NCBI GenBank assembly: GCA_964586605.1
Contig: CAZPGX010000003.1
Coordinates: 1 to 47,452, forward strand
Origin: an uncultured Planctomycetia bacterium
GTDB lineage: Bacteria; Omnitrophota; Gorgyraeia; JAFGHF01
Length of the DNA: 47,452 bases
Direction of reading: 5' to 3'
Shown here: positions 1,179 to 20,988 of the stretch, in pieces
Position numbering within the stretch: position 1 is the first letter of the stretch
Layout of the letters: each line of letters opens with the position of its first letter
Translations under genes and position numbers: made by a program
The notes under the pieces: model-generated
Databases searched by the model: none
Told to the model about the DNA's origin: nothing
Seen by the model: only the letters and a program-made list of their open reading frames with translations

Positions 1179-1190
1179 TCACTCACCTCC

Positions 1191-1210
1191 AAAAGGGGCC
1201 TGGCCCCTTT
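1191..1210 (-). terminator. Short GC hairpin plus T4 directly after a pilin stop codon (attenuator/terminator candidate)
   Basis: The minus strand reads TAA-AAA-GGGGCC-A-GGCCCC-TTTT, followed by GGAGGTGA and then GTG. It is a near-identical copy of the module at 772..791. Confidence 0.4.
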
Positions 1211-1642: not shown

Positions 1643-1682
1643 CTTATGCTAAATAGTCGCTGTCCCTATTTTTTAAAATATA

Positions 1683-2042
1683 CTATTGTTCACTAATGGT
1701 GCCGTCATAGGTAATTTGATAACTTTTCAACGTCGAGCCGGTCAATTTCGTTGCCTTCCCTACCACGTCACCTGTACCATCTACAGCCGTATAAGTATAA
1801 TACTTTGTGGGCGTTGGAATCTCAACGTCTAAATTACCTATCACACTAGTGTATTCACTATGTTCTAGGTTGTATCTTAACTGCGAGGAGCGAATAGCAC
1901 CCAGCATATTCTGGCCCTCGGCCTCTCTGGCCTTGTTGGCGGCGGCAATAAACCTAGGCATCGCCAGCGATGCCAAGATACCTACGATAATTACCACAAT
2001 CATCAATTCCAATAACGTAAAACCTTTTTTTCTGTTAAACAT
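1683..2042 (-). CDS. Type IV pilin / GspG-like prepilin (119 aa); major-subunit candidate (first pilin gene, strong RBS)
   Basis: N-terminus MFNRKKG|FTLLELMIVVIIVGILASLAMPRF matches the prepilin motif. A GGAGGG RBS sits 4 nt before the ATG. Confidence 0.8.
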   Translation of the reverse strand: MFNRKKGFTLLELMIVVIIVGILASLAMPRFIAAANKAREAEGQNMLGAIRSSQLRYNLEHSEYTSVIGNLDVEIPTPTKYYTYTAVDGTGDVVGKATKLTGSTLKSYQITYDGTISEQ

Positions 2043-2132
2043 CTTTCCCTCCTATTCTAAGTTTTTAATTCTTTTCTTTTACCTATCACCTACGTCCTAT
2101 GCCCTAACTTATTCCCCCCTTTCTTCTACAAA

Positions 2133-3353: not shown

Positions 3354-3396
3354 CGTAATTAAAAGATATCATACAAGAAGTCCTTTGTCAAGCAAT

Positions 3397-5121: not shown

Positions 5122-5130
5122 CTTTATCCA

Positions 5131-6609
5131 TTATTCCTCAAACCCATCAAGGATCCTTTCCATTGCTTCCTCTTTCAACCGCAGATTGCCATATTCGTAA
5201 GGCATCTGCTTCTCTAAGGCCAATGCCCCTGTCTTTGTTCCTTCATCAAGCAAGTGCGGAGTGATGAAGATGATTAATTCTTTATCTGTGCTGGTGTCGT
5301 CCTTTTTGCGGAAGATATTGCCTAAGAAAGGGATATCTCCGAAAAAAGGCATCTTTCTTGAGATGTTGGTTTCTTCTACATTAATCAATCCCCCGATTAT
5401 CACGGTTGCTCCGTCATTAACCGTAACCGTCGTCTTGGCGCTTCTGGTCTGGGGGTCATAATAATCACCAGTCAAAACTGACGATTTTACATTAGTTACT
5501 GAAGGCTCAATGGACATGGTAATCTCACCTGCCTTATTGATCTGGGGAGTAACCTTAAGCGAGACCCCTGTCTCATACCTTTCTACGCTTGTGCTTGAGG
5601 TACTCACGCCTCCTTCGGCGGCGATTTCGACCGCCCCGGAGGAAACTGCCGTATCGGCAGTAATGTTTATTTCCGCAGTCTGATTGTTTAAGGTGAGGAT
5701 TTTGGGCCGGGCTAAAATCCTGCTATCGGTATCTTTTTTCAGCATAGCCAGTGTTGCAGTTAAGTTTGTCGCAGAGATGGAGCCTGTAGTATAAGTGACG
5801 GCATCCGAAGAGGTAAATTTCGTAAAGGGAAAACTGTCCGTGCGACTTGCTCCAGTGACAGAGAAAAGGTTTCCCTCAGTAGAACTACCCCAGCTTATGC
5901 CCAGCTTATCAATGGTTTGCAGGCTTGTCTCAATCACCTCGGCCTCAATCATCACCTGCGGAAGTTTTATATCCAGCTCTTTTATCGCCTTTTCAATCTT
6001 CGGGAATTGGCTGGGCAGATCGGTAACAATAAGGCTGTTGGTGCGGGCATCCTCAACTACTTGGCCATGCTCGGTAAGCAGTTTCTCTATAACTTCGTTT
6101 ATACCCAGCCCTCCACCAGAAGACCCTTTCTCTTCTCCTGCTACAGCGAGTTCGTATCCCTTGACACGGGCGTATTGGAGAGGAAAGATCATGGTAATTG
6201 TCTCTACCTCCGGCCTGCCCCACTCCTTGACCACAAATATTTTGCTTTCCGGCTCCTGTTCGTAAGTCAAATTATTCGCGGTCATTATTGTAGTTAGGGC
6301 ATCCTGCACAGAAACCTTATCCAGATAAAGGGTAATCTTGCGGTCCTTGATATTTTCACTGGCAATAAAGTTTAAGTCCGCCTGTTGAGAAAATACCTTC
6401 AATATATCCTTTAAGTCGGCGTCCTGAAAATCCATAGAGATTAGCGGCGAAAGCAATTCTGTTTCGCTAAGGTCGGCAGAGGCCAGCTCAAACCCTTCTA
6501 AATGCTCGCCTTCTGACTGCGCCTGGCTTAAATTAAAACTAAAGCCCAGCAGTAAAAGCAAAGCTATAGATGCCAACAGCACTACCCTTTCCTTTATTAT
6601 ATTGTGCAT
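5131..6609 (-). CDS. pilQ: Secretin (PilQ/GspD family outer-membrane channel)
   Basis: 492 aa with a signal peptide and N0/STN-like module (DFQDADLKDILKVFSQQADLNFIAS). The C-terminal secretin signature is present (VIIGGLI...IPFLGDIPFLGNIFR...ELIIFITPHLL). Confidence 0.88.
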   Translation of the reverse strand: MHNIIKERVVLLASIALLLLLGFSFNLSQAQSEGEHLEGFELASADLSETELLSPLISMDFQDADLKDILKVFSQQADLNFIASENIKDRKITLYLDKVSVQDALTTIMTANNLTYEQEPESKIFVVKEWGRPEVETITMIFPLQYARVKGYELAVAGEEKGSSGGGLGINEVIEKLLTEHGQVVEDARTNSLIVTDLPSQFPKIEKAIKELDIKLPQVMIEAEVIETSLQTIDKLGISWGSSTEGNLFSVTGASRTDSFPFTKFTSSDAVTYTTGSISATNLTATLAMLKKDTDSRILARPKILTLNNQTAEINITADTAVSSGAVEIAAEGGVSTSSTSVERYETGVSLKVTPQINKAGEITMSIEPSVTNVKSSVLTGDYYDPQTRSAKTTVTVNDGATVIIGGLINVEETNISRKMPFFGDIPFLGNIFRKKDDTSTDKELIIFITPHLLDEGTKTGALALEKQMPYEYGNLRLKEEAMERILDGFEE

Positions 6610-6636
6610 TTTCTTCCCCTTTCTATATACTATATA

Positions 6637-7032
6637 TTATTTTATTGTTGGCCTGAGAATATATTGGCTTCCTTCATGTAATACGTAAACGCCTTCTTTG
6701 CGGATAGATAAAATCTCTGCGCCCTGGATAACTTCGCCTACCCTGAGCACCGTGCCGTTAATGATAACCTGGGGCATACTCGTTCCCCAGACCATTCCCT
6801 GAACCTTAAGACCAGGCAAGCCGTAGCTAATTGTAGACTCCTCTTCTGCTTCTTCCCCGGCAAGAGGGACTGCCATCATTTCAAAAGGGCTTTTAAAGGG
6901 GTCACGTAGAGCCCGGGCTGTATATTTTAAGTCCCTCCACTGCCCCGTCTTTGCCTGGGGCTCGGCAAAGACAAAAGAAACAGCCCAGATTAAAACCAGG
7001 AAAACCAAGAAAACCAAAAGGTATTTTTTCAT
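6637..7032 (-). CDS. Secreted small protein, PilP / GspC-HR-like secretin-coupling candidate
   Basis: 131 aa with a signal peptide (MKKYLLVFLVFLVLIWAVSFVFA). The C-terminal beta-rich segment LKVQGMVWG...VIINGTVLRVGEVIQGAEILSIRKEGVYV resembles PilP/GspC homology regions. Its position between the PilO-like gene and the secretin supports the call. Confidence 0.45.
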   Translation of the reverse strand: MKKYLLVFLVFLVLIWAVSFVFAEPQAKTGQWRDLKYTARALRDPFKSPFEMMAVPLAGEEAEEESTISYGLPGLKVQGMVWGTSMPQVIINGTVLRVGEVIQGAEILSIRKEGVYVLHEGSQYILRPTIK

Positions 7033-7544
7033 TTCTTTAAATAAAACCCGCTGATTGCCAAATCTACCTTGGGGGTGTTATCCTCTCTGGGGTCGGTAAC
7101 GGTAGACTTTTGCATATTAATCCCCTTAACCCAAATAAATTCCTGGCTTGCTTCCAACAAGGCCAGGAATCTGCCCAGCTGGTGATACTCGCATCTTAAG
7201 GGAAGTTTCAAGGGCGTTTCAATATATCGCTGCGTATCCACGGCCAGCAGAGGATCAAAGGTCTCTATCTCTATGCCGCTGGCCAGAGCCAGCTCTGAGA
7301 CCTTGTCTAAGAAATAAGTAATCTCTGTCGTAGAAAAAGACCTCTCCTGAACCGCCTTCAGCCTTTTGTCCAGAACAGCGATAGCCCCTAAAATATCGTT
7401 TTTCCTGTCTTCCTCTTTTGTCTCTGACTTTATTAAGGTTATCTTATTTAAAGCACTTTGATATATTGCGTTGCGGCCGATAAGGAAAGCCATGGTAACA
7501 ACCAGGGCGAAAACAATCAGGTCCTTTTTTTGGTCTGTATCCAT
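7029..7544 (-). CDS. PilO / GspM-like bitopic alignment-complex protein
   Basis: 171 aa with an N-terminal TM (LIVFALVVTMAFLIG), a coiled-coil region and a C-terminal ferredoxin-like part (PLKLPLRCEYHQLGRFLALLE). It shows 4-nt overlaps with its neighbours. Confidence 0.6.
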   Translation of the reverse strand: MDTDQKKDLIVFALVVTMAFLIGRNAIYQSALNKITLIKSETKEEDRKNDILGAIAVLDKRLKAVQERSFSTTEITYFLDKVSELALASGIEIETFDPLLAVDTQRYIETPLKLPLRCEYHQLGRFLALLEASQEFIWVKGINMQKSTVTDPREDNTPKVDLAISGFYLKK

Positions 7545-7562
7545 CTTGCACTCCCGTTAATT

Positions 7563-9107
7563 TTATCGCGTAAAACAAGAAATGGTAAAATCCTTTACCG
7601 GCATCCCTTTCAATTCCCCGGAACTCATTGAATCCAGTTTTATTTCTTTAAACCCCTGGGAAAAAGCCTTACTCTCTTTTAGGTTGGAGACAAATTTACT
7701 AACTATTCCTATCTCGCGCACGGCGCTTTCGTGATAGGCTGTGCCTTTCAAAACTAAAGAACGGTTAACCTTATTCCCTTTTGAAAGCTTATCGTTAAAG
7801 TTGAGGTTCGTTAACCATACTCCGGGCGGAATCAGCTTAGGCAACTCATTAAATTCATCGGTCAAAAAAACCTTTTTGTTTATCATCTGGTCTAAAACAG
7901 AAAGTTTGGCTTCAAGTCCTTTTTTTGTCTTTTCCAGCTCTTCGTAAGAAAAAGAAGCTATGGACAAACTAATTTGAGGCCTCACAGAAAGCACTTTTTC
8001 CAATTCTTTCTTTTCTCTGCGGACAGGAAAACCCATTGCCAGGTGCAAAATCAAAAGGCCCATACCGGCAAAGGTCAGGGCGCGAAATAGCGCCAGCTTG
8101 ACCCTGGGGGTAAACTGGAGAGGCTCCTTTGTTGCCACGGCCTTCGGCTGGACCTCGCGAACCTGGCAGAGATTTACCTCTGTGCCGGCTAAAATCCTCT
8201 GGCGTAAGGCCAGGCCAATGGCTATGGCCATATCAAGGGAAGGCAGGGCCTTCTGGGGTTTTACTGCCTTGGCAGGATCGGCTTTCTCCACGGAGAGCTT
8301 TAACTCTTGCGCTAATTTTTTATCCCAGTCCTTAAGTTCTACTTCGCCGCAAAGCAGTATTTTGTCAATCGTCTCGGAAGGAAAAAGTTTTTCATAGTAA
8401 TCCAGGGACATCCGGATTTCATTAAGCAAACTATCAAAGAGTAGTTCTTCTTCTAAAGGAAGCGAAACATCCCGCGTAAGATAACAAATTTTATCTTTTA
8501 CTATATTAATATCCGCCATTCCATAGTCAACATCTACAATAGCGGTGTGTTTCTCCTTCTCCAGCTGATTGCTCAAGGCAAGAAGCCTGACCAGGCTAAA
8601 AGAAGCCGGCTCTAAGGCCGAAACTGTAAGCTGGGCCTGTTCAAAGAGAGAAAGATACCTCTGGGCTATGCCTCTTTTTACGGCTACAAAAGTCACATCC
8701 ATCTTATTGGTATCTTTACTCTTGGGCAAGACCACATGAAAACCCCAAACCAGCTCTTCTATCTTAAAAGGAATGTATTTTTTGGCCTCAAATTTTATCG
8801 CGGTCTCCCACTCCGATTTCGGTATCAAAGGCATCTGGAAATATCTAACCAGGACATCCTTGCCGGCAATGGCGGCAACTACCTCCTTGGCGCTGATTCT
8901 ATTTTCCTGCAGGGCCCTGGTAATGGCCTGCACCGTGGCCTGCCTTCGGGATGCATCATCTGAGTGCGAAGCAGCCTGAATCTCTACCCTGGCAAATTTA
9001 AGCAACTGTGCCCCAAAAAGCACTCCTTTTACCTGGGCAACATAAACATTCTTTGCCCCCACATAGATGCCTGTGGTAGTCTGTAAATTCAAGTTGAGCT
9101 TAGTCAC
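7563..9107 (-). CDS. PilM-PilN fusion (GspL-like): actin-like ATPase-fold domain + TM + periplasmic PilN-like domain
   Basis: 514 aa with a GTG start. The first ~310 aa resemble PilM/FtsA-like proteins (IAGKDVLVRYFQMP, AKKYIPFKIEE, ALEPASFSL). This is followed by a TM (LTFAGMGLLILHLAMGF) and a PilN-like tail. Confidence 0.75.
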   Translation of the reverse strand: MTKLNLNLQTTTGIYVGAKNVYVAQVKGVLFGAQLLKFARVEIQAASHSDDASRRQATVQAITRALQENRISAKEVVAAIAGKDVLVRYFQMPLIPKSEWETAIKFEAKKYIPFKIEELVWGFHVVLPKSKDTNKMDVTFVAVKRGIAQRYLSLFEQAQLTVSALEPASFSLVRLLALSNQLEKEKHTAIVDVDYGMADINIVKDKICYLTRDVSLPLEEELLFDSLLNEIRMSLDYYEKLFPSETIDKILLCGEVELKDWDKKLAQELKLSVEKADPAKAVKPQKALPSLDMAIAIGLALRQRILAGTEVNLCQVREVQPKAVATKEPLQFTPRVKLALFRALTFAGMGLLILHLAMGFPVRREKKELEKVLSVRPQISLSIASFSYEELEKTKKGLEAKLSVLDQMINKKVFLTDEFNELPKLIPPGVWLTNLNFNDKLSKGNKVNRSLVLKGTAYHESAVREIGIVSKFVSNLKESKAFSQGFKEIKLDSMSSGELKGMPVKDFTISCFTR

Positions 9108-9883: not shown

Positions 9884-11440
9884 TTATCTGTTTGTAGAGA
9901 CGCCCCATTGGGGCGTCTCTACCAATTGCCGTTTCAGCAGCTTGCCCGTAGGAGTCTTGGGCAGCTCTTTCCTAAACTCAATTAAACGGGGAATCTTGTA
10001 ACTGGCGAGCTTATCCCTACAAAACTGTAGAATCTCTTTTTCGCAAAGACAGCTGCCATTTTCTAAAACTATAAAGGCAGCAGGTGCCTCTCCCCTGATT
10101 TTATCTTTTTTTCCCACAACCGCCGCTTCTTTTATCTCGGGGTGGGCTTTTAAGACGTTCTCTATCTCTGTTGGATAGACGTTCATCCCGCGGCTTAAAA
10201 TCATCTCTTTCTTGCGCCCTGCTATATAGATATAGCCATCGTTGTCTATCTTGGCCATATCTCCGGTAAAAAGCCACCCCCCCCTGATTGCCTTTTTGGT
10301 CTCTTCAGGGCGATGAAAATAGCCTAGCATTACATTGGGGCCTTTAACAATCAATTCGCCGATTTCTCCGCAAGGCGCCTCGCTTTCGTCTTCCCTAACC
10401 ACCTTAACCTCCACCCCGGGAAGCGGCAACCCTATAGAGCCGGGTTTGCGGAGCCCCTGCAAAGGGTTAAGAGAAACTACAGGAGAGGCCTCGGTCAGGC
10501 CATAACCTTCCAAAAGGACAACCTTTGAAAACCTTTGCTCAAAGGTTTTCAAAGTCTCTGTGCTTAAAGGGGCTGCTCCCGAGATGCAGACCTTAACGCG
10601 CAAAAAGACCCTTAAGAATGGCGGAAGGGTTAAGTTCTTCAAGATATCAAATAGATGCGGTATGCCTACAATAATGGTTATACGGTTGAAGAGAATACTG
10701 CGTAAAACCTTTTGAAAGGGTTTAAGCGACTTAATAATCACAGACCTGGCGCCAGCGTAAATAGGGACAAATATACAAACCATCAAGGTAAAAGAATGGA
10801 ACATCGGCAAGATAAGCAAAAACCGCTCAGAAGGACTGATCTCCAGGGCCGAAACAGAGGAAATGACATTGGATGAGAGGTTGGCGTGGGAAAGCATTAC
10901 CCCTTTGGGGGAACCGGCGGTCCCTGAAGTATAAATCAGCAAAGCAATGTCCTCAGGGTTTATCTCGGGAAGGTATTCATCGCCAGCGGAAAAGGCAATC
11001 TCTGGGGCATAAAGAAAACCATCCGCCTTTTTATCCGTCAGAATGATTTGTTTTAGATCCAGTAGCTCCTTTGCCCCTTTTTGCCCCTCAACGAGCATCT
11101 GCTCTAAAACTTGTAAAAAATCAGAAGAACTTATCAATACCCTCGCGCCGCAATCGCCGAGGATATAGCGCAGTTCACTCAGGGTCAAGAAGACATTTAG
11201 GGGAACGCAGACTGCTCCGGCTTTTAAGATAGCAAAAAGGGCAATCACGAACTCCGGGCAGTTGTTCATCAGGATTGCCACTTTCTTGCCCTTTTTTACT
11301 CCCAGTTGCTGCAGCTTGAAAGCCAGTTGCTCTGCCCGGGTATTGAGCGTGCGAAAGCTTAAAGCCCCGCCTGCGTAGATTAGAGACTTACGCCAGGAAA
11401 ACTTCTTTGCGCTTTCCTCTAATAACCGCACCAGGTTCAT
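9884..11440 (-). CDS. AMP-dependent acyl-CoA synthetase / long-chain fatty-acid--CoA ligase
   Basis: Shows the AMP-binding motif YTSGTAGSPKGV, plus GYGLTE, TGDMAKIDNDGYIYIAGRKKE and PKTPTGKLLKR. The start is set at MNLVRLL, which makes an ATGA overlap with the upstream gene. Confidence 0.88.
   Translation of the reverse strand: MNLVRLLEESAKKFSWRKSLIYAGGALSFRTLNTRAEQLAFKLQQLGVKKGKKVAILMNNCPEFVIALFAILKAGAVCVPLNVFLTLSELRYILGDCGARVLISSSDFLQVLEQMLVEGQKGAKELLDLKQIILTDKKADGFLYAPEIAFSAGDEYLPEINPEDIALLIYTSGTAGSPKGVMLSHANLSSNVISSVSALEISPSERFLLILPMFHSFTLMVCIFVPIYAGARSVIIKSLKPFQKVLRSILFNRITIIVGIPHLFDILKNLTLPPFLRVFLRVKVCISGAAPLSTETLKTFEQRFSKVVLLEGYGLTEASPVVSLNPLQGLRKPGSIGLPLPGVEVKVVREDESEAPCGEIGELIVKGPNVMLGYFHRPEETKKAIRGGWLFTGDMAKIDNDGYIYIAGRKKEMILSRGMNVYPTEIENVLKAHPEIKEAAVVGKKDKIRGEAPAAFIVLENGSCLCEKEILQFCRDKLASYKIPRLIEFRKELPKTPTGKLLKRQLVETPQWGVSTNR
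9894..9922 (-). other. Perfect 13-bp stem / 3-nt loop hairpin inside the last 10 codons of the acyl-CoA ligase
   Basis: GTAGAGACGCCCC-ATT-GGGGCGTCTCTAC is read directly from the sequence. The stop codon lies 8 nt beyond the hairpin. Confidence 0.8.
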
Positions 11441-11700
11441 TTTTGCATCTGGGGCAATAATTCTTGCACCGCCGAAACTACCTGTTCCCACTTCTCCGGG
11501 TCATGAATAGTAAACTTCTGCTTTCTCTTCCAACCTTCCTTCTTTTTCTGCCAGAGATACAAACAGACCTGCTTGCGCCCCCAGGATTCAACTAACACGG
11601 CGGCTGCCCACCAGCCAAAACCTTTGCTTAAAGTACGGTAAGCGACTGCCCGTAAAGGGGGCTCTATGGGAATCCGTTCTTCTCTTCTTTCACCTTCCAT
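11437..11700 (-). CDS. Hypothetical Trp/Lys-rich small protein (87 aa)
   Basis: The ORF shows ATGA coupling to the downstream ligase. I recognise no family. Distinctive segment: GFGWWAAAVLVESWGRKQVCLYLWQKKKEGWKRKQKF. Confidence 0.5.
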   Translation of the reverse strand: MEGERREERIPIEPPLRAVAYRTLSKGFGWWAAAVLVESWGRKQVCLYLWQKKKEGWKRKQKFTIHDPEKWEQVVSAVQELLPQMQK

Positions 11701-11713
11701 AACTACACCTCGT

Positions 11714-11914
11714 TTATTTCCTTAACCCTATCGTGTAATCTCCGTCTTGTTGTTTTAGCCTCACATGCCCTTCCCTGGCAAGCCACCCTAAGCTCATCAA
11801 AATAATATCCCGCGGCTTATCCAGGCCGGAAACTAAAGCGGAAAACGTGCTTTGGCCGTGCTCGTCCAAAAAGTGCCAAATCTCTCCGGCTACTATTCCT
11901 AATTCTGTAATCAT
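11714..11914 (-). CDS. Small winged-helix protein (DUF2582-like)
   Basis: 66 aa. GEIWHFLDEHGQSTFSALVSGL...LMSLGWLAREGHV matches my recollection of the DUF2582 wHTH pattern (..GWLaRE..). Confidence 0.55.
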   Translation of the reverse strand: MITELGIVAGEIWHFLDEHGQSTFSALVSGLDKPRDIILMSLGWLAREGHVRLKQQDGDYTIGLRK

Positions 11915-12147
11915 GACGGTTCGCTCCTTTCATTATAACTCTTACACCTTGGGCAAACAGAAAGCCCTTTATGCTTGCTATCTACGTAAATATAGGTGCA
12001 GATGGAACATTGCCAGACTGATTTAAGGTCTATGGTATCTTTTGAAGGAAGCTTTATTTTTGAAAATGCAAACCAGGCAACAAAAATGCCGAAAATAGAA
12101 ATCAATAAATACAAGAATATCGCTGTTTCAAACTGCAGTTTTATCAT
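11911..12147 (-). CDS. Membrane-anchored zinc-ribbon protein (78 aa from the ATGA-coupled start)
   Basis: Has an N-terminal TM (AIFLYLLISIFGIFVAWFAF) and a C-terminal CxxC...CxxC ribbon (CSICTYIYVD...CPRCKSYNE). Confidence 0.55.
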   Translation of the reverse strand: MIKLQFETAIFLYLLISIFGIFVAWFAFSKIKLPSKDTIDLKSVWQCSICTYIYVDSKHKGLSVCPRCKSYNERSEPS

Positions 12148-12767
12148 TTGACATCCAGGGTTAATTTTATTCTCTGCCACTGCTCTTTTTGCTCAGAGCT
12201 CGGTGCAAAGCGCCATTTTCTTAAGTATCTTGCCAGAACCGCATCTATTTCGGGGTTGCCGCAGGTCTTTACGTTTATTACCTGCCCTGCCAAACCATCA
12301 CCCAGGACACATACCTCAAACACGGCATAATTGCCTTTGAGCTGATAGTGCTGCCACTCCGGGTATTCAGGAAAAGGCGGCCGAAAAAGTATCTGCCGCT
12401 TTGGGCCCTGCTCTTGCGTTAAAACGGGGCTTCGGCCAAAAAAAGGCATCTTTTTTTCCGGGGCATCTACGTCAATAAAGGTATCGGCAGCTAAGGCCTT
12501 TTTCTTAAACTGCAATAATGTATACGGCCTTCCCCTAAAATAACTCTTTGCCTGGATATCGGCTTCTGCGGGAAGTTCTACAACCCCCTTTCGGGGGTCT
12601 GTCAGCGAAACCCTGTCGTTCAATATTGAACCTAAAAAAATAACCGAGGAATACTGCCTTGGCTTTAGGCCGGTCCTTAGATTGACGATTGAAACCGAAG
12701 AGAGCCAAAAAAGGTGCCAAAAGAAAGAGATTAACAGCGCTAGGCCCAACTGGCGGCTAATAACCAT
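12144..12767 (-). CDS. TonB/TolA-like energy-transducer candidate (N-terminal TM + TonB-C-like domain)
   Basis: 207 aa with a TM (LGLALLISFFWHLFWLSSV). The C-terminus PPFPEYPEW...GNYAVFEVCVLGDGLAGQVINVKTCGNPEIDAVLARYLRKWRFAP fits the TonB_C pattern. It sits directly downstream of exbB-exbD. Confidence 0.6.
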   Translation of the reverse strand: MVISRQLGLALLISFFWHLFWLSSVSIVNLRTGLKPRQYSSVIFLGSILNDRVSLTDPRKGVVELPAEADIQAKSYFRGRPYTLLQFKKKALAADTFIDVDAPEKKMPFFGRSPVLTQEQGPKRQILFRPPFPEYPEWQHYQLKGNYAVFEVCVLGDGLAGQVINVKTCGNPEIDAVLARYLRKWRFAPSSEQKEQWQRIKLTLDVK

Positions 12768-12771
12768 ATGT

Positions 12772-13173
12772 TTATTGTTCGGGTTGATTGGTAGCTATGT
12801 TAATCTGGGTTAGGCCCGCCTCACGGGACATATCCCAAATCTGGACCACCTTACCTAAAGAGGCCTTACGGTCGGCTTTAATCAAAAGGGGACGCTCTTG
12901 CCTCGCCGCTTTCTCCAGATAAACTTTCAGTTCTTTTAAAGTAAGCAGGCGGCTGTTCAGATAAACCAGGCCCTCGGCGCTAATGACAATGACCAGGTTT
13001 TTCTCCTGAATCACCTCGCTGGTCAGGGCCTTAGGCAGATTTATTTTAATCCCCGGCTGAAAGATATAGCTGGAAGTGAGCATAAAAAATATCAAAAGAA
13101 GAAACACCACATCGATCAACGGCGCAATATCTAACTGGCCTCTTTCGAATTCTACATGCCTTCTAAATCTCAT
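12772..13173 (-). CDS. exbD: ExbD/TolR family biopolymer transport protein
   Basis: 133 aa. DIAPLIDVVFLLLIFFM is followed by a periplasmic domain, typical of ExbD/TolR. Confidence 0.85.
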   Translation of the reverse strand: MRFRRHVEFERGQLDIAPLIDVVFLLLIFFMLTSSYIFQPGIKINLPKALTSEVIQEKNLVIVISAEGLVYLNSRLLTLKELKVYLEKAARQERPLLIKADRKASLGKVVQIWDMSREAGLTQINIATNQPEQ

Positions 13174-13175
13174 CT

Positions 13176-13802
13176 TTAGTATTGCTCCCCTCTTTGAGAA
13201 AGGACATTGATTAATTCGGCGGCGCTTCTGTCCATTTCTACAATAAAGTTTTTCACCCGGCTGACCAGATAATTATAGGCAACAAAAGTAGGTATGGCTA
13301 CCATCAATCCTGCTGCTGTAGTGATTAAGGCCTCCCAGATACCTCCGGCTAAATTGGCGGGGCTTACCGAATGCATAGCGGTAGCCTTCTCTTGAATAAT
13401 CTGAAACGCCCTGACCATGCCCGTAACTGTGCCCAACAGACCCAAAAGCGGCGAGATATGCGCAATGGTCGCCAAGGCGCCCAGGTTTTTTTCCAGGCGC
13501 GGCACCTCATAAATTCCCGCATCCTCTATTGCCTCTTTTATCTCTTGCCGCGAACCATCGTGCTTCAAGATACCCGCCTTGACAATATGGGCAACGGGGC
13601 CGGGAGTCTTCTGGCATAAATCAACGGCTTCCTTAATCCGGTTACTCTTCAAAGCAGAGTAGATACTCTCCATAAATTTATCAATATTGATTCTTGCCCG
13701 ATGTAAATGGTAAAGCCTCTCAATAACTACTGCCAGGGCCACAATTGAGCAAAGAATAATCAAGTACATCAGCGGCCCGCCTTTTTGAATTATATTCCAC
13801 AT
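13176..13802 (-). CDS. exbB: MotA/TolQ/ExbB proton-channel family protein
   Basis: 208 aa with three TMs. The conserved segment is LATIAHISPLLGLLGTVTGMVRAF...GGIWEALITTAAGL. Confidence 0.88.
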   Translation of the reverse strand: MWNIIQKGGPLMYLIILCSIVALAVVIERLYHLHRARINIDKFMESIYSALKSNRIKEAVDLCQKTPGPVAHIVKAGILKHDGSRQEIKEAIEDAGIYEVPRLEKNLGALATIAHISPLLGLLGTVTGMVRAFQIIQEKATAMHSVSPANLAGGIWEALITTAAGLMVAIPTFVAYNYLVSRVKNFIVEMDRSAAELINVLSQRGEQY

Positions 13803-13816
13803 AGTATTCCCCTCCG

Positions 13817-14134
13817 TTAACAGAAAAATATAAAGACCAACAAGACTATAATTATAATTACGGAAATAATATAAAAATCGTTAAAATACAGAAAGTCTCT
13901 TAATCTTTCCGCCCAGCTGTATCTGCCGCCGGCTAGGGGCTCTTCCTTGGACCTGGCAAGTTCAGGAATCCCTTGGGCTTTTATTTGCTCAATCTGGTCC
14001 TTTCTAAACCTCAGGATTGCCCCTCCCAGCCGATAGGCGGGAATCCTGCCGCTATCTACTAATCTCCTCAAATCCCCCGTTGAGATACCAAGATATTTCG
14101 AGACCTCTCTGACACTGAGTAATTTCTCGGACAT
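13817..14134 (-). CDS. Tail-anchored excisionase-type HTH (HTH_17-like) protein
   Basis: 105 aa. The N-terminal LSVREVSKYLGISTGDLRRLVDSGRIPAYRLGGAILRFRKDQIE is HTH_17-like. A single C-terminal TM is present (FYIISVIIIIVLLVFIFFC). Confidence 0.65.
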   Translation of the reverse strand: MSEKLLSVREVSKYLGISTGDLRRLVDSGRIPAYRLGGAILRFRKDQIEQIKAQGIPELARSKEEPLAGGRYSWAERLRDFLYFNDFYIISVIIIIVLLVFIFFC

Positions 14135-14149
14135 TACCTTCCTTTTTGC

Positions 14150-14713
14150 TTACTTTATTTTTTCGCTGGCGATCCAGGCATCTACTTTAGCGCGTTCGAA
14201 CTTCCAGCCATTGCCGGCCTTCTCCGCCGGGATTCTCCCCTTCTGGGCCCAGTCTAATACCGAAGCGGCATCCACCTCTAGATACTTCGCCAGGTCCTCT
14301 ACGTTCATCAGCATCTCATTGATTGTAGAGCGTTTAAATCCTGTCTCCCTGGCATCCATCTGGCATTTTCCCCTAAAGATTGCCCCTTCGGCTATGCTTA
14401 AGCTGGGCGTACGTATATCTCCCACTAAATGCGCGGTCCCGCTAAGGCTAAGCCGGTTGGAAGCGGCCACGTTACCGGAAACCCTGCCTGAGATAATGAT
14501 GTCTTCGCCCATAATATCAGCCTCGACCCGGGCATTCTGGCTTACCGTCAGGCTTCCTTTGGTATCCAGCTTTCCCTCAAAGTTGCCATTGATGCGCAAA
14601 TTCACCGGGTCCTTGAAGGCAAGCGTCCCCTGCATACTGGCATTCACATCCAACACCTTCTCCTGCTCCACCTTTACCTCCGGCTGCAGCTTTTTCTTGC
14701 TCCTAAAAGCCAT
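14150..14713 (-). CDS. Bactofilin (DUF583 beta-helix) fused to a C-terminal excisionase-type HTH domain
   Basis: 187 aa. The core GTLAFKDPVNLRINGNFEGKLDTKGSLTVSQNARVEADIMGEDIIISGRVSGNVAASNRLSLSGTAHLVGDIRTPSLSIAEGAIFRGKCQM is a classical bactofilin repeat. The C-terminus MNVEDLAKYLEVDAASVLDWAQKGRIPAEKAGNGWKFERAKVDAWI is HTH_17-like. Confidence 0.75.
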   Translation of the reverse strand: MAFRSKKKLQPEVKVEQEKVLDVNASMQGTLAFKDPVNLRINGNFEGKLDTKGSLTVSQNARVEADIMGEDIIISGRVSGNVAASNRLSLSGTAHLVGDIRTPSLSIAEGAIFRGKCQMDARETGFKRSTINEMLMNVEDLAKYLEVDAASVLDWAQKGRIPAEKAGNGWKFERAKVDAWIASEKIK

Positions 14714-15755
14714 CCTTCACCTCCCCTGTTTTATACTTCTTGTCCTTTTTCACTAGAACTCTCTCCACTTTTAGGTTCGGTTCTACCTCCAGATTCAGGT
14801 CCGAAACTACGCCCCTTTTATACAGTTGATATCCCAGGCCCGCCACCATTGCCGCGTTATCCTGGCAAAGGGTCTGTTCGGGAAAATAGACCTTAATTGC
14901 CTGTTCCTCTAGATTCGCAGTCAACGCTTCTCGTAAACGTTGATTTGCGATTACTCCCCCGCCGACAACAAACTGCTTAACTTTCATCAGGCTACAGGCA
15001 GTGAGCGACTTATCAACTAAAACATCTACTACTGCCTCTTGGAAACCTGCGGCAACATCCCCAAGCGTAGCGTTTGGGTGTTTATCTTTTGCATAATATA
15101 ACACTGCTGTTTTTAAACCACTGAAGCTAAAGTCTAGGCTGCCTCTTTCCAAATAGGAGCGCGGGAATTTTATCTTACCCTTATCGCCTCTTTTAGCCTT
15201 CTTCTCAATAACTGGCCCGCCGGGATAGCCTAGATTTAAAATCTTGGCTACCTTATCAAAGGCCTCGCCTGCGGCATCATCGCGCGTCCTGCCCAAAACC
15301 TGCCAGTGCAAGTAATCCTTTACATAAAAAAGGTTTGTATGGCCTCCGGAAACTACCAGGCCCACAAAAGGAAATTGTGGTTTCTTTTTCCCTAAGAGAG
15401 GCGCGTATAAATGGGCCTGGATATGGTTTATTCCCACCAGGGGCACGGGCAAAGCTAAACTTAAACTCTTAGCCAGGGAAAGGCCGATTAAAAGCGCCCC
15501 AACCAACCCCGGGCCATAGACAGCCGCTACTAAATCGATATCGCTTAAACTTACCCTGGCCTCATCCAACGCCTGCTCTAAAACATAATTAATCAGCTCA
15601 ACATGGTAGCGGGTGGCTATCTCAGGGACTACCCCGCCATATCTTTTATGCAAATGCAGGCTGGAAGAAACAACATTAGAAAAAACATTGCGCCCGTTTT
15701 CTACTACCGAAACTGCTGTCTCATCACAGGAGGTCTCAATACCTAATACTATCAT
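14703..15755 (-). CDS. tsaD: tRNA N6-adenosine threonylcarbamoyltransferase (Kae1/TsaD)
   Basis: 350 aa. MIVLGIETSCDETAVSVV, HVELINYV, SGGHTNL and DNAAMVA are hallmark TsaD motifs. Confidence 0.92.
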   Translation of the reverse strand: MIVLGIETSCDETAVSVVENGRNVFSNVVSSSLHLHKRYGGVVPEIATRYHVELINYVLEQALDEARVSLSDIDLVAAVYGPGLVGALLIGLSLAKSLSLALPVPLVGINHIQAHLYAPLLGKKKPQFPFVGLVVSGGHTNLFYVKDYLHWQVLGRTRDDAAGEAFDKVAKILNLGYPGGPVIEKKAKRGDKGKIKFPRSYLERGSLDFSFSGLKTAVLYYAKDKHPNATLGDVAAGFQEAVVDVLVDKSLTACSLMKVKQFVVGGGVIANQRLREALTANLEEQAIKVYFPEQTLCQDNAAMVAGLGYQLYKRGVVSDLNLEVEPNLKVERVLVKKDKKYKTGEVKDGF

Positions 15756-15763
15756 ATTTTAAG

Positions 15764-16537
15764 CTATTTTATCAACTCCGAAATAAAAACGAATTCAATG
15801 CCCTCGCGGCCCATTATGGCAGCTTCTTCTTTGAGCACCTCAAGCGTCTTAGACTTGGCGTGGCCGATGCCCACGGCCTGGCCTGCGGTTTTAGCAAATT
15901 CGCTCAGTTCTCTCACCTGCCCCCGGATATATTCTTTATCGTCTAAATTATCCAGAAAAACATCTCTTGAAGCAAATTTAAGTTTTAGCTCTTGGGCTAA
16001 CTGCTGGCAGACAGATTTATCCATTACTAAATTATCCAAGAAAAAAAGGCCTTTTTCTTTCAATTCAGCAAAGATTAACGACATAATTCGCTTATCTTTC
16101 GTAGCCCGCGAACCCATGTGGTTGGAAACCCCCTTGGCATAAGGCACAGAATCCAAAGCGCGTCTGGTAATCTTGGAAATTTCCTCGTCCGACATCCGGG
16201 AAGTAATCGTATCTTTCTCCAGGCCTATCTTTCTTCCCCTTTTCTCGGGCTCAAGGGGCAGATGCAGGATGACCTCCTGATTCAACCCATTGGCTATCCG
16301 GGCAATTTTCCTTGAGTATCTCAAATTAGGCAAGATAGAGATAGTTAGCGGAATATCCATCTCTTTTAACAGCTTTACGCAATACAAATTATATCCCCAG
16401 TCATCAAGCACTATTGCCACTTTCGCCTTGGGGACCTCTTTAAGCCCCAGACACCCCTTGCGCAGACAAAAGACCAGCAAGGTGACTGCCGCTAAAACAA
16501 CTACAGATAAAATTAAAATATTTTTCTTAATTTTCAC
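15764..16537 (-). CDS. Divergent polysaccharide deacetylase (YibQ-like)
   Basis: 257 aa with an N-terminal TM, then KVAIVLDDWGYN...ISILP...GVSNHMGS, typical of the divergent polysaccharide deacetylase family. Adjacency to ctp is common for this family. Confidence 0.75.
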   Translation of the reverse strand: MKIKKNILILSVVVLAAVTLLVFCLRKGCLGLKEVPKAKVAIVLDDWGYNLYCVKLLKEMDIPLTISILPNLRYSRKIARIANGLNQEVILHLPLEPEKRGRKIGLEKDTITSRMSDEEISKITRRALDSVPYAKGVSNHMGSRATKDKRIMSLIFAELKEKGLFFLDNLVMDKSVCQQLAQELKLKFASRDVFLDNLDDKEYIRGQVRELSEFAKTAGQAVGIGHAKSKTLEVLKEEAAIMGREGIEFVFISELIK

Positions 16538-17849
16538 CTCTGTAAACCTTAATCCCTTTTAATAAGTCCACAGCGTGCACCAGCTGGTTGTCGTAAAAAC
16601 CCTGTTCTTCCATAAATCCTTTCAGCGTGGTCCGGACTTGCCCTGTCTGGGGTTTGGTTTTCTCTTCTTTTGCTTTTTTCTCTTGCTGCTCTTCCTCAAC
16701 CTTTTCAAATATTTTCCCTGCTTCTTCTTCCTCTACCTTAAGCGCCTCTTCCAGGCTCTCTTCTTTAAACTTAACTTCTACGTCGGGTTCGATGCCTTTC
16801 TCGTGAATACATATTCCGCTGGGAGTGTAATACTTACTGGTGGTCAGCCGCAGCGCCGAGCCGTCCATTAGAGGCACGACTGTCTGCACAGAGCCCTTGC
16901 CAAAGGTCTTTGTGCCTAAAAGCACACCTCTTTTGTGGTCCTTGATTGCCCCGGCGACAATCTCCGAGCCTGAAGCCGAACCGCCGCTAATCATCACCAC
17001 CAAAGGATACTCGCGGTGAGCGCCCCTGCCCCCTGAGCGGAATTCAAAATCCTGTCCTCCTGCCCGTCCGCGGGTGGATACTATCACCTCACCGGCCGGG
17101 ATAAATTTCTCACTCACCTTCACTGCCGAATCCAGCAGCCCTCCGGGATTATTGCGCAAATCTAAAATCAAGCTGTCCAGCCCTGCTGCCTCCAACTCGC
17201 GCAGTGCCTTTTCTAAATCCTGGGGGCTTCGTTCCTGAAATTCCGAAAGCCTGACATAGCCGATGTTATCCTCAAACAATTTTGCCTTGCGGATACTCTT
17301 GACCTTGATGATATCCCTGGTAATCGTAAAGTCCAGGAGTTTCTCTGCTCCCTCGCGCATTACGGTTATGGTCACCTCTGTTCCCGGCTCACCGCGAAGC
17401 TTCTTTACCGCCTCCATCAGGGTGATATCTTTGGTGACCTCATCCTCTATCTTGACTATCTTGTCATTGGCCTTTAAGCCGATATGATAGGCCGGGGTAT
17501 CGTCTATCGGGGCAATGATTGTGAGCAGCCCATCTTTAATGGCGATCTGAATCCCTAAACCGCCGAATTCCCCTTCTGTCTCCACCTTGACTTCATTGTA
17601 TGCCTCGGGGGTCAGGAACTGGCTGTAATCGTCCAGTGAACGCAGCATCCCTTTTAAGGCGCCGTAGATTAAGTCCTTATATTTGGCCTCTTCCACATAA
17701 TCCGAGCGAATCATTACCAGGGCGTCGGTAAACAACTCTATCTCCTGATAAAAATCATCTTCCTTTTGCTCCTCGCCGATTACCCCTTGGGCATGAAGAA
17801 TGAAGATTGCACTAATTACCACTAACGACGCAACCAAGACTTTACGCAT
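16527..17849 (-). CDS. ctp: S41 carboxy-terminal processing peptidase
   Basis: 440 aa with a signal peptide and a PDZ region (GLKANDKIVKIED). The S41 catalytic region is present (NPGGLLDSAV...SASGSEIVAGA...GTKTFGKGSVQ). Confidence 0.9.
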   Translation of the reverse strand: MRKVLVASLVVISAIFILHAQGVIGEEQKEDDFYQEIELFTDALVMIRSDYVEEAKYKDLIYGALKGMLRSLDDYSQFLTPEAYNEVKVETEGEFGGLGIQIAIKDGLLTIIAPIDDTPAYHIGLKANDKIVKIEDEVTKDITLMEAVKKLRGEPGTEVTITVMREGAEKLLDFTITRDIIKVKSIRKAKLFEDNIGYVRLSEFQERSPQDLEKALRELEAAGLDSLILDLRNNPGGLLDSAVKVSEKFIPAGEVIVSTRGRAGGQDFEFRSGGRGAHREYPLVVMISGGSASGSEIVAGAIKDHKRGVLLGTKTFGKGSVQTVVPLMDGSALRLTTSKYYTPSGICIHEKGIEPDVEVKFKEESLEEALKVEEEEAGKIFEKVEEEQQEKKAKEEKTKPQTGQVRTTLKGFMEEQGFYDNQLVHAVDLLKGIKVYRGEN

Positions 17850-19275
17850 CCTTTCCCTCCTCTAATTTTTTCTTTAATAACTTATTGGCCAGCTCTGGAT
17901 TGGCCTGGCCGCGGCTGGCGCGCATAATCTGGCCGACCAAAAAACCAAAGGCATTGGCCTTTCCCCCGCGATAATCCTCAACCGGCTTGGGGTTGTCCTT
18001 AACTACTTGTTCAATAATCCTATCAAGCTTACCCGAGTCGCTAATCTGTGAAAGGCCTCTATCCCTGACAATATCACCGGGCTCTTTTTTACCGTCTAAG
18101 ACTTCGGGTAAAATCTCTTTGGCAATCTTGCCGCTAATCTCACCGGTCTCAATCATCTTTAAAAGAGTCACAAAGGTTTTGGGTTTAAGTTTAAGATGAC
18201 GCACTTCTATATTGCGGGCATTTAGCTGGGCAAGGAGTTCACTCATAATCCAGTTGCTGATTACTTTAGGGCTATTATAGATTTTAACACAATTTTCAAA
18301 ATATTGGCTTAAATATTTATCGGCGGTCAAAACATTGGCATCATATTCGGGGATCTTATATTCGCGCACAAAGCGACTGGCCTTGGCTTGAGATAATTCC
18401 GGCAGGGACTTCTCAATCTCCTTGATATAGGCCTCACTTAAAATAAAGGGCACTAAGTCGGGTTCGGGAAAATAACGGTAATCATGGGCCTCTTCTTTGC
18501 TGCGCATAACTTCAGTCTTGTTCTCTTCGCTATTCCAAAGGCGGGTCTCCTGGACTATTCTTTTTTTCTGGTCTAGGAGCTTACCCTGGCGCTTGATTTC
18601 ATACTCCAGGGCCTGTTTTACGCCTTTGAAGGAATTCATATTTTTAAGTTCTACTTTCTCACCCAATTCTTTTGAGCCTTCTTGGCTTAGTGAGATATTG
18701 GCATCGCATCTTAGGGAACCTTCTTCCATATTGCAGTCGGAAACCTCTAAATATTTTAAGATTCTCTTTAGACGCACCAGATACTCATTGGCCTCATCGG
18801 CTGACGCAATCTCCGGTTCGCTGACAACCTCTAAAAGAGGCATCCCGCAACGATTGAAGTCTACCAGGCTCTGGCCTTTTTCGTGAATCAGTTTTCCGGC
18901 ATCCTCCTCAAGGTGCGCGCGGCGGATGCGGATTCGCCTGGGGCCGGTCCCTGTATCTATAGAAAGAGAGCCGCCGCTGGCAACAGGCAAATCGTATTGA
19001 GAAATCTGAAAATTCTTGGGCAGGTCCGGATAAAAGTAATTCTTGCGGTCAAACTTAATCAATTTGGAAATCTTACAATCCAGGGCTAGGGCTGCCTTAA
19101 TAGCAAGCTTTAAGGCCTCTTCGTTTAGAACGGGCAGGCTTCCCGGAAGGCCTAAACACACAGGACAACTCTGTGAATTGGGCCGCTGGCCGAATTCGGT
19201 GGAGCAGCCGCAGAAACACTTACTTCTGGTAGCTAAATGCGCATGCACCTCTAAACCGATAACAACTCTATACAT
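17842..19275 (-). CDS. gatB: Asp/Glu-tRNA(Asn/Gln) amidotransferase subunit B
   Basis: The start is set at [14 protein letters not shown], the canonical GatB N-terminus, giving an 8-nt overlap with gatA. A C-terminal YqeY/GatB domain is present. Confidence 0.93.
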
Positions 19276-20716
19276 TTGGCCTTTTTTTGTGGTGTTCTGT
19301 GTTTTGTTCAAAAGCAAAGGCTGTGCGCAACATGGTCTGTTCATCAAAGGCGCGGGCAATAACTTGCAGGCCTACAGGCAGGCCTTCGCTGTTTAGTCCG
19401 CAAGGCAGGGATATTGCCGGCAGCCCCGCTAAATTAACTGATATAGTATAGATGTCCGATAAATACATTGCCAAGGGATCATCCGTGCGTTCACCAATCT
19501 TAAAGGCAGCTGTAGGTGATGTCGGCGTAATCAGACAATCTACCTTTTTGAAGGCCGCATCAAAGTCTTCTTTGATCAGCCGGCGCACCTTCAAGGCCCG
19601 CAGATAATAGGCATCATAATAGCCGCTTGATAAGGCATAGGTGCCTAAAATAATCCGCCGCTTAGCCTCCTCGCCAAGGCCCTCACCTCTTGTCTTAAAA
19701 TACATCTCGATTAAATCCGAAGGTTTGGCTCTCCTGTGCCCATACTGCACGCCGTCAAAGCGGGCCAGGTTTGAGCTGGCCTCGGCTGTGGCCAGGATAT
19801 AATAATCCGCTACCGCATATTCTGTATGCGGAAGTGAAATCTCTTTTACCTTAGCGCCCAGGCCTGTTAAGACATCCAGGGCCGCGGCAACCTGCGTTTT
19901 TACCTCATTATCTAATCCTTTGGCAAAATATTCCTTTGGGATGCCTATTTTCAAACCCTTGACGTCAGGCTTTAAATTCTTGGTGTAATCAGGCACTTTC
20001 TCCTCTGCACAGGTAGAATCCATCAGATCATGCCCGGAAATCACATTTAAAAGCAGTGCGGCATCCTCTACATCTTTGGCAAACGGGCCGATCTGGTCTA
20101 GAGACGAGGCAAAGGCAATCAGACCATAACGGGAAACCCGCCCATAAGTCGGCTTCAAGCCCACCACCCCGCAAAGAGCAGCCGGTTGGCGGATAGAGCC
20201 GCCGGTATCCGAACCCAGGGCCAGAATAGTCTCATCCGCGGCCACTGATGCAGCCGAGCCGCCGCTTGAGCCGCCGGGAATGCGCTTTAGGTCCCAGGGA
20301 TTATGCGTGGGCCCGTAGCAAGAGGTCTCACAGGATGAGCCAAAGGCAAATTCATCCATATTGGCCCGGGCTAAGATTAGCGCGCCCTCTTGTTTCAATC
20401 GACTGACAACCGTGGCATCATAGGGCGGTTTGAACCCTTTCAATATCCTTGATGAGCAGGTGGTATCCTGGCCTGCTACGCAGATATTATCCTTGATTAC
20501 AACCGGGACGCCAAAGAGTTTACCCTTGCGGGGACCTTTCTCCAGTTGCTCGCATTGGGCTAAGACATCCTGTTTATCCACAAGGCAGAGCGCCTTAACC
20601 TTTTTTTCCGTCCGCTCAATTCTCTTTAACAGGTCTTCGGCAACCTCTTTGACCGAGGTCTTTTTCTTGGCGATTAGATTGGTAAGTTCGTGGGCGGTGA
20701 GTTTATGCAGTTCCAT
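19268..20716 (-). CDS. gatA: Glutamyl-tRNA(Gln) amidotransferase subunit A
   Basis: 482 aa with the amidase signature [13 protein letters not shown]...[13 protein letters not shown]. Confidence 0.93.
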
Positions 20717-20988
20717 TATTCGATTACTTTCGGCACGCTAAAACTGCTGTCCTTCTTTGCCGGGGCATTCTTCAGCACTTTCTCTACGGGTAAAGATGGC
20801 TTGACCTTATCTTCGCGAAAGACATTCTTCAATGGCAAGACATGGCTCATCGGCTCAACTTTGTCCACCTTGAGCTCCTTGAGCTTCTCAATGTAGCCTA
20901 ATATATCGCTTAATTGTTTGGTGAGTTTTTTCTTCTGGGAGACGTTTAGGTCAATCCTGGCAAGCTTCGCTACATACTCTATATCCAT
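20716..20988 (-). CDS. gatC: Asp/Glu-tRNA amidotransferase subunit C
   Basis: 90 aa. VAKLARIDL...L..IL.Y...L is typical of GatC. A TAATG junction links it to gatA. Confidence 0.85.

Follow-up and report, generated by a model that had tools for sequence, protein, structure and literature searches.

The subject of this report is a pair of adjacent minus-strand genes on a 47,452-nt contig of an uncultured Planctomycetia bacterium, placed by GTDB in the phylum Omnitrophota (Gorgyraeia; JAFGHF01) (GenBank assembly GCA_964586605.1, contig CAZPGX010000003.1, positions 1 to 47,452, here called the window). The upstream gene (14150..14713, 187 aa; identified by its open reading frame (ORF), Pfam matches and homologues) encodes BacHTH, a fusion of a bactofilin to a helix-turn-helix (HTH) domain of the HTH_17 family. 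The gene that follows (13817..14134, 105 aa; identified by ORF, Pfam and synteny) encodes HTH_TM, a second HTH_17 protein that ends in a transmembrane (TM) helix. We find that BacHTH is a genuine bactofilin with a genuine HTH_17 domain and that HTH_TM is its obligate neighbour; the fusion and this tail-anchored partner together appear to be a core feature of the whole phylum Omnitrophota. A membrane-bound polymer displaying winged-helix modules is a well-founded prediction.

Profile searches with Pfam placed a bactofilin domain (PF04519) at residues 20–118 of BacHTH, spanning profile positions 2–98 of 98 (E 1.4e-25; 89.8 bits against a cut-off of 27.9), and an HTH_17 domain (PF12728) at residues 135–183 (E 1.7e-10; 41.5 bits against a cut-off of 27). 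Both domain calls, and the completeness of the bactofilin core, had been proposed in an earlier note on this DNA and are upheld by these matches; the peptide quoted there for the HTH corresponds to residues 135–180, inside the HTH_17 region. An AlphaFold2 model of BacHTH, computed from an alignment of 22 sequences (A1), shows a β-helix at residues 20–119 with predicted local distance difference test (pLDDT) values above 90, flanked by a disordered tail (residues 1–18) and a disordered linker (residues 123–133). The C-terminal residues 135–186 form a helix-turn-helix, a β-hairpin wing and a further helix, with a pLDDT of ~85. Along the minus strand, the protein is made up of a basic, disordered N-terminal tail that is a candidate membrane-targeting sequence (residues 1–18; 14660..14713; pLDDT <50), the bactofilin β-helix core (residues 20–118; 14360..14656), a flexible linker (residues 119–134; 14312..14359; pLDDT <50 at residues 123–133) and a winged HTH of the HTH_17 or MerR-excisionase type (residues 135–187; 14153..14311), the core and the HTH each being supported by Pfam, AlphaFold2 and Foldseek. 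The linker of ~15 residues is gapped and unconserved in alignment A1, varying in both length and sequence.

Foldseek searches of the PDB showed that the core resembles Caulobacter BacA (2n3d, TM-score 0.83) and a Thermus bactofilin (6ria, TM-score 0.89), and both PDB bactofilins were also matched in phmmer. Residue F113 of BacHTH aligns with F130 of BacA, in a column whose residues are exclusively F, L or I across the 22 sequences of A1; in BacA, F130 is a polymerisation-interface residue, and the F130R exchange breaks the polymers (PMC12448750). For the C-terminal domain, the Foldseek matches in the PDB were BldC, RdfS, RacA, Pukovnik Xis, pSK1 Par and CbpM. BacHTH and HTH_TM alike pass the cut-off of the TIGR01764 'excise' family.

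HTH_TM carries its HTH_17 domain at residues 5–53 (Pfam, E 2.9e-12). Its AlphaFold2 model contains a winged HTH at residues 5–54 (13973..14122, minus strand), disorder at residues 60–72, a helix at residues 74–84, a break at N85 and a second helix at residues 86–104. The winged HTH is closer to canonical, as judged from the model, the alignment columns of 78 sequences and its closest PDB sequence, Pukovnik Xis (4j2n, E 1e-5). The last 19 residues (87–105; 13820..13876, minus strand) have a mean Kyte-Doolittle hydropathy of 3.33 with no residues after them, and since this hydrophobic segment ends the protein, HTH_TM is tail-anchored, in line with the single C-terminal anchor described earlier. 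All 78 partners show a 19-residue mean hydropathy of at least 1.56 for the TM helix and 0–5 residues beyond the helix. Spanning the predicted kink between the short helix and the TM helix is a juxtamembrane motif, D-F-x-Y-F-N-D-F-Y (residues 80–88; 13871..13897, minus strand; alignment A2 and AlphaFold2), of which residues D80, F81, Y83, F84, F87 and Y88 are invariant in alignment A2. Across the phylum, the HTH core and the motif are equally invariant, and a regular-expression search of the six-frame translation of 930 kb found the motif once per locus, in the partner gene only. The motif might serve for docking of a protein, for contact with lipids or as an insertion signal. The HTH_TM family comprises 174 clusters, and the organism names attached to them are Omnitrophota only. 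The HTHs of the two proteins share 27% identity over 48 aa; they belong to a common domain family, and the term paralogous that had been applied to them holds in a loose sense only.

A survey of the fusion architecture across databases, as suggested in the earlier note, returned 1,136 clusters of BacHTH relatives at E ≤1e-3, with both Pfam domains present in the best 120 of 120, and 469 species-level genomes with such relatives. Organism names on the clusters are Omnitrophota or Omnitrophica only. The sequences of both proteins are public under generic names only, BacHTH relatives being labelled 'polymer-forming cytoskeletal protein' or 'excisionase family DNA binding protein'. Of the 469 relatives from a scan of one genome per species, the best 80 loci were examined; every one of them is from Omnitrophota, and they comprise metagenome-assembled genomes, single-cell genomes and one closed chromosome (some records being titled 'uncultured Planctomycetia'). 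An exhaustive profile search of 1.84 billion representatives yielded 28,604 bactofilin-like proteins, only 47 of them at E ≤1e-30, and ~20 full-length clusters at 50% identity that align through the HTH. On these counts, the fusion architecture forms a compact lineage within the bactofilins.

That a sequencing or assembly error had joined two separate genes, a condition under which the earlier note would have abandoned its reading, is excluded, and nothing spoke in its favour. A single-ORF fusion is present in 120 of the 120 best homologues and in the 80 loci examined, single-cell genomes included, and a single ORF of ~167–200 aa recurs in independent NCBI, JGI, ENA and Logan assemblies and in the closed chromosome CP070837.1.

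The most divergent subfamily with the bactofilin-HTH_17 architecture (P0171/P0281, 187–188 aa) is found at locus L087:1-6850 (JGI contig Ga0105164_10002154), with the fusion at 6001-6567 and no HTH_TM partner after it, among entirely different genes. Upstream genes there encode a MamF_MmsF magnetosome-membrane-family protein, an HTH_3 regulator, an actin-like 'Volactin' and a ParA/CbiA-type ATPase with AMPK1_CBM, and the locus also has three proteins without a Pfam match. The fusion might serve here in a gene cluster for positioning an organelle or cargo.

HTH_TM lies directly downstream of BacHTH in all 77 loci with downstream sequence, the other three stopping at a contig edge. The pair is kept where upstream synteny differs (L062, L074), and it also occurs in the divergent loci L081 and L084, the latter with a SPOR protein and a TPR-PDZ protein upstream. 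The true unit is this phylum-wide gene pair. In most of the 80 loci, tblastn recovered a conserved order of gatB, an S41 peptidase gene, a YibQ-type deacetylase gene in some cases, tsaD, a variably present MgtC-family gene, BacHTH and HTH_TM.

In the window, both minus-strand ORFs lie at the coordinates first reported for them, and the spacer between them measures exactly 15 nt (14135..14149), as claimed; indeed, every element of that observation (the fusion, its HTH_17 neighbour, the spacer and the TM anchor) holds. The two genes share one reading frame across the spacer, which contains a AAAGGAAGG ribosome-binding site, and a GGAGGTGA ribosome-binding site stands 5' of the BacHTH ORF, whose product begins with MAFRSKKK. 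The start of BacHTH overlaps the end of tsaD (14703..15755, minus strand; Pfam TsaD, E 3.4e-90) by 11 nt. A promoter and terminator scan of 11300..20900 detected no terminator-like site between BacHTH and HTH_TM on the minus strand; the absence of convincing signals between the genes is consistent with co-transcription without being evidence for it. An MgtC-family membrane protein is encoded between tsaD and the fusion in the inspected loci L001, L010, L029, L046 and L056 (~5200-5970), and most remaining loci have a matching gap at this position. The window has no MgtC gene, and its tsaD instead bears a C-terminal extension of ~20 aa that reaches across the fusion start codon (14703-14713).

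The N-terminus of BacHTH can be set against the global bactofilin membrane-targeting consensus MFSKKKK, in which F2 and K4/K7 are critical in BacA (PMC12448750). The MAFRSKKK terminus is close to this consensus; only within the window's clade is it kept, in the form MAFR[SN][KR][KR]K. Position 2–3 is aromatic in ~14 of the 80 loci, and most others read M-[LAGS]-[RK]-[RK]-D-[KR]-N-E, which is basic and lacks the aromatic residue. The resemblance to membrane-targeting peptides noted earlier thus holds for the window, but the combined aromatic and basic form is limited to this clade and a few others. Since most clades lack the aromatic residue, family-wide attachment through the tail-anchored partner is a serious possibility. 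Such a substitution has a parallel in BacA, where the bitopic membrane client PbpC, when overproduced, can stand in for the targeting sequence (PMC12448750).

The HTHs of 81 fusions and of 78 partners were aligned to those of RacA, BldC and Pukovnik Xis, the register being confirmed by HMMER against the PDB sequences. RacA contacts DNA through K15 and R19 of helix 2 and R30 of the wing; the K15A and R30A exchanges weaken binding and R19A abolishes it (PMC4914108; RicO preprint). In BldC and Xis the K15 position is likewise Lys, and an Arg occupies position 18 or 19. In the fused HTH, the turn glycine (RacA G11) is replaced by Glu in 80 of 81 sequences and the helix N-cap (RacA S13) is Asp or Glu, again in 80 of 81, while the partner has Gly in the turn (52/78) and Ser or Thr at the N-cap (56/78). 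The K15 column of the fused HTH holds Ser, Asn, Gly or Ala, with no basic residue among the 81 sequences, and is mixed in the partner (Glu in 22, Lys in 13 and Asp in 12 of 78). At the R19 column, Asp or Glu is found in 63 of 81 fused HTHs and Lys or Arg in 38 of 78 partners (Arg 20, Lys 18; Asp 15, Glu 10), and partner position 18 is Lys or Arg in 35 of 78. The wing is basic in both proteins: the R30 column is Lys or Arg in 80 of 81 fused HTHs and 68 of 78 partners, two further wing columns of the fused HTH are Lys or Arg (76/81 and 80/81), and the partner wing has an invariant Arg (78/78).

Both HTHs combine an acidic helix 2 (mean charge -2.6 for the fused HTH, -1.7 for that of the partner) with a basic wing (mean charge +1.1 and +2.3, respectively). 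The partner, with its Gly turn, its Ser/Thr N-cap and Lys or Arg at the equivalents of positions 18 or 19 in about half of the sequences, shows a MerR-like pattern. Judged by these residues, sequence-specific reading of the major groove by the fused HTH is unlikely, and low-specificity, wing-mediated DNA binding amplified by the avidity of the polymer is possible; the partner HTH would be the better candidate DNA binder of the two. No compensatory covariation in net or regional charge was detected between fused and partner HTHs over 77 pairs; the correlations were weakly positive, which probably reflects clade composition, so that the result is uninformative rather than negative.

How might the two proteins work together? 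We tentatively propose, largely by analogy with known anchoring systems, that they could form a phylum-wide scaffold, lining the cytoplasmic membrane on its inner face, that tethers DNA to the membrane, although we stop short of calling this probable. The bactofilin β-helix would polymerise end to end into non-polar filaments on the membrane, as established bactofilins do. The filaments would be attached by the basic tail (MFSKKKK-like in the window's clade), by the tail-anchored partner or by both, and would display a dense array of HTHs, one winged helix per subunit on its flexible linker. Array and clustered partner might then hold the nucleoid, or some region of the chromosome, at the membrane through many weak, low-specificity contacts. 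The probable DNA contacts would be made by the partner's more canonical HTH and by the basic wings of both domains; the fused HTH, with its acidic recognition helix, would more probably dock beside or onto the partner HTH than read bases.

We rank a DNA tether first among the possible functions on three grounds: members of this fold family overwhelmingly bind DNA, the wings have stayed basic, and the parts list copies that of origin anchors. The solved relatives closest to the fused HTH mostly bind DNA as oligomers, and two of them, RacA (5i44) and pSK1 Par (8csh), are chromosome or plasmid tethers. We are more hesitant about a specific form of this proposal, in which the cytoskeletal polymer itself would be the DNA-binding array and, with its tail-anchored winged-helix partner, would act as a housekeeping nucleoid-to-membrane tether across Omnitrophota. 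If true, it would be a one-operon, nucleotide-independent counterpart of anchoring of the RacA–DivIVA or PopZ–ParB type, built from unrelated parts.

Several observations weigh against tethering. The fused HTH lacks the major-groove contacts of its DNA-bound relatives, having a Glu in the turn, an acidic N-cap and an acidic R19 column, and its mean net charge is ~ -1.6; its own sequence speaks against the simplest version of a DNA tether. The recognition helix of the partner is often acidic too, helix 2 starting with S-E-x-E in most sequences (e.g. S-E-E-E). MerR-like folds can be pure protein binders, as illustrated by CbpM (3ucs) among the Foldseek matches. The aromatic residue of the canonical membrane-targeting sequence is absent in most clades. 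Finally, envelope-related genes recur near the pair (CtpA-type S41 peptidase, YibQ-type deacetylase, TPR-PDZ, SPOR and TolQR), and a role at the cell wall, as is usual for bactofilins, would suit such neighbours no less well than one on DNA. The DNA tether predicted in the earlier note stays plausible by analogy, but the fused HTH itself, which keeps only the basic wing, does not support it.

Most of these observations would suit the main rival, a protein-protein adaptor that works without DNA, in which a degenerate 'pseudo-HTH' docks on the partner HTH or on the juxtamembrane motif. The partner would then be the membrane anchor or client of the bactofilin polymer, and the scaffold would, like other bactofilins, organise envelope functions such as cell-wall remodelling, division or Tol-like machinery. 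We consider this possible, and somewhat less likely than the tether. The surface with which RacA, BldC and Xis touch DNA carries the conserved acidic residues, and the dipole of acidic helix 2 and basic wing in both HTHs could support wing-to-helix docking. The strict pairing of BacHTH with HTH_TM, the invariance of DFxYFNDFY beside the membrane and the recurring envelope-related neighbours all fit an adaptor, as do clades that have no aromatic targeting residue and may need the partner for membrane attachment. There is precedent both for a membrane client that anchors a bactofilin, PbpC with BacA (PMC12448750), and for a protein binder with the MerR fold, CbpM. However, characterised HTH_17 and MerR-type domains nearly all bind DNA, the basic wing residues are conserved in BacHTH and HTH_TM, and the 77 pairs gave no compensatory charge covariation between the HTHs.

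An improbable further option is a membrane-sequestered transcription switch like BacR with BacE/F, in which one or both HTHs would be transcription factors, unable to bind DNA while in the membrane-bound polymer and released, for example, under envelope stress. HTH_17 domains do occur in small regulators such as BldC, and BacR provides the precedent of a bactofilin-linked HTH protein that loses DNA binding at the membrane (PMC13649987). Against a switch, neither HTH is free to leave: one is covalently part of the polymer subunit and the other is permanently held by a TM helix, so that release would need proteolysis. A DUF4004 (PF13171) match is absent from both proteins at E ≤0.01 (Pfam). In the window, moreover, BacHTH has no promoter region of its own upstream, since its start overlaps tsaD, and there is no conserved local regulon: because the downstream genes vary by clade, a dedicated one is unlikely. 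We also considered whether the HTH_17 proteins could be excisionases, or the MAD1 component of a MADS defence system, on a mobile element beside a bactofilin. The shared TIGR01764 match and a sub-threshold MADS MAD1 similarity point that way, but the MAD1 (NF047737) scores of 50.1 and 29.5 bits fall far short of the cut-off of 80 and the match is limited to the HTH region. The HTH is in frame with the bactofilin in all homologues, the pair sits in a fixed housekeeping synteny block across 80 genomes, and a Pfam scan of 39 window ORFs of at least 120 aa and four shorter ones found no integrase, recombinase, methyltransferase, phage or other defence gene. We reject this candidate, given the housekeeping context and the sub-threshold MAD1 scores, as very improbable.

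Bactofilins are known as passive scaffolds that recruit their clients via short tails or the core, and we know of none described with a built-in folded domain of the nucleic-acid-binding type. Full-text literature searches returned no paper on bactofilins in Omnitrophota and, judged by title and abstract, no description of a bactofilin-HTH fusion, which agrees with the earlier note, whose author was aware of no characterised one. Omnitrophota are an almost uncultured phylum of very small, possibly host-dependent bacteria. They otherwise keep the canonical dcw/FtsZ division gene set (PMC12283558). If the DNA tether is true, the pair would represent a new, independently evolved solution to chromosome-membrane anchoring and the first case of a polymer and a DNA-binding module in a single polypeptide. 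If the HTH instead docks proteins, it would show cleanly how an HTH_17 domain can be turned into an adaptor of the cytoskeleton. Either outcome would give a first handle on Omnitrophota cell biology, of note for specialists in the cytoskeleton and in chromosome organisation.

Downstream of the pair, the window encodes TolQ/ExbB-like, TolR/ExbD-like and weakly TonB_C-like proteins (12144..13802, minus strand; Pfam and NCBIfam), given here as context. The TolQ- and TolR-like scores lie under the tolQ, tolR, exbB and exbD equivalog cut-offs, and no TolB or Pal was found among the window ORFs scanned. Only the eight closest loci (L001–L008) have these genes after the pair, so the Tol link is lineage-specific, and we rejected a functional unit that includes them. 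Other clades have LarB/LarC-like, TPR plus two-PDZ or SNase genes downstream instead. The whole clade-specific block (11714-13802, minus strand), conserved in L001–L008 only, contains the TolQ/ExbB-like and TolR/ExbD-like genes, the 207-aa weak TonB_C protein, an 89-aa TM protein with a zinc-ribbon-like CxxC...CxxC pattern and a 66-aa DUF2582 winged helix. Next to it, an 87-aa ORF without a Pfam family (11437-11700, minus strand) is 75–86% identical across L002–L008, above most of its neighbours, and overlaps the annotated GTG start of an acyl-CoA synthetase ORF by 55 nt.

Next to the pair there recurs a gene for a protein of the membrane or periplasm that has a TPR repeat and two PDZ domains (L038:6877-7830, L056:6880-7854, L046:7757-9892 and L084:3975-4946). 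Its position is downstream in several clades, with a fusion to LarC in L046, and upstream in L084, beside the SPOR-domain protein; the protein may be functionally associated with the pair, which would point to the cell envelope.

Elsewhere in the window, all 39 Pfam-scanned ORFs of at least 120 aa taken as genes (36 with a match) lie on the minus strand across 47 kb, the scan having been confined to ORFs of that strand; such a long co-directional run is unusual. Positions 93-9107 (minus strand) hold a complete-looking type IV pilus or type II secretion system-like cluster with a PilM-PilN fusion, PilO, a secretin, an MshEN-type ATPase and PilC/T2SSF. Several prepilin-like proteins are also encoded there, one of them weakly similar to ComP, a DNA-uptake pilin.

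Compared with the canonical bactofilins Caulobacter BacA and Thermus TtBac, BacHTH is alike in its β-helix, its hydrophobic interface residue and its short basic tail. It differs at the C-terminus, where a linker and a folded winged HTH take the place of a short disordered peptide. PbpC, as a membrane client of BacA, offers a parallel to HTH_TM, which is encoded alongside BacHTH. Beyond the bactofilins, BacHTH and HTH_TM are not members of the RacA/RocS/RicO, DUF4004/BacR, MADS or excisionase functional families, an exclusion we draw because the defining features that we tested for each are lacking.

A close parallel in the list of parts is offered by RacA, RocS and RicO of Firmicutes, which combine a MerR-type winged HTH with self-association and a membrane anchor to tether replication origins (PMC4914108; RicO preprint 10.64898/2026.03.06.710092). 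The same parts, a MerR-type winged HTH on a flexible linker, self-association and membrane attachment (for RacA, with DivIVA), are found here. The DNA-binding domain of RacA matches the fused HTH with a Foldseek TM-score of ~0.6 and a weak sequence match (hmmsearch, E 0.024). However, they are not a homologous family. The Firmicutes proteins self-associate by a central coiled coil and carry a C-terminal amphipathic helix or bind DivIVA, and neither the BacHTH nor the HTH_TM AlphaFold2 model contains a coiled coil, HTH_TM consisting of a disordered linker and the TM helix beyond its HTH. BacHTH would self-associate through the bactofilin β-helix instead, with the HTH at the C-terminus, in reversed order. 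The RacA K15 and R19 contacts (R18 in RicO) are small or acidic residues in BacHTH, and the membrane link is split over two proteins.

Two systems link a bactofilin to a separately encoded protein of the DNA-binding type. In Myxococcus xanthus, the DNA-binding adaptor PadC is encoded just downstream of bacNOP, binds BacP's C-terminal extension and links the bactofilins to ParABS (PMC5703909). As proposed for the arrangement described here, a bactofilin is tied to chromosome organisation via a protein of the DNA-binding type encoded downstream, with the region C-terminal to the bactofilin core as the platform for interaction. PadC, however, is a soluble ParB-like protein that binds the disordered BacP tail, whereas in Omnitrophota the bactofilin itself carries the domain, a tail-anchored HTH_17 protein is encoded downstream and no ParA or ParB gene is linked. 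In Bacillus subtilis, the HTH protein BacR (YhbD, DUF4004) is encoded beside the bactofilin genes, binds BacE and BacF, is held at the membrane by them and then loses DNA binding (PMC13649987). The genetic linkage of an HTH protein to bactofilins is alike in both cases, but BacR stands alone as a soluble dimer and alternates between DNA and bactofilin, whereas both HTHs described here are fixed to the polymer or the membrane and lack DUF4004.

The HTHs of BacHTH and HTH_TM share winged-helix fold, size and Pfam/TIGRFAM membership with BldC, Pukovnik Xis, RdfS and Tn916 Xis. Those proteins are free-standing, of 50–90 aa, with basic recognition helices, and are mostly parts of mobile elements or developmental regulators, in contrast to the acidic helix and the setting without a mobile element found here. 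Proteins of the BldC and Xis type multimerise head-to-tail or as filaments on DNA, a geometry that a polymer-displayed array of winged helices could mimic.

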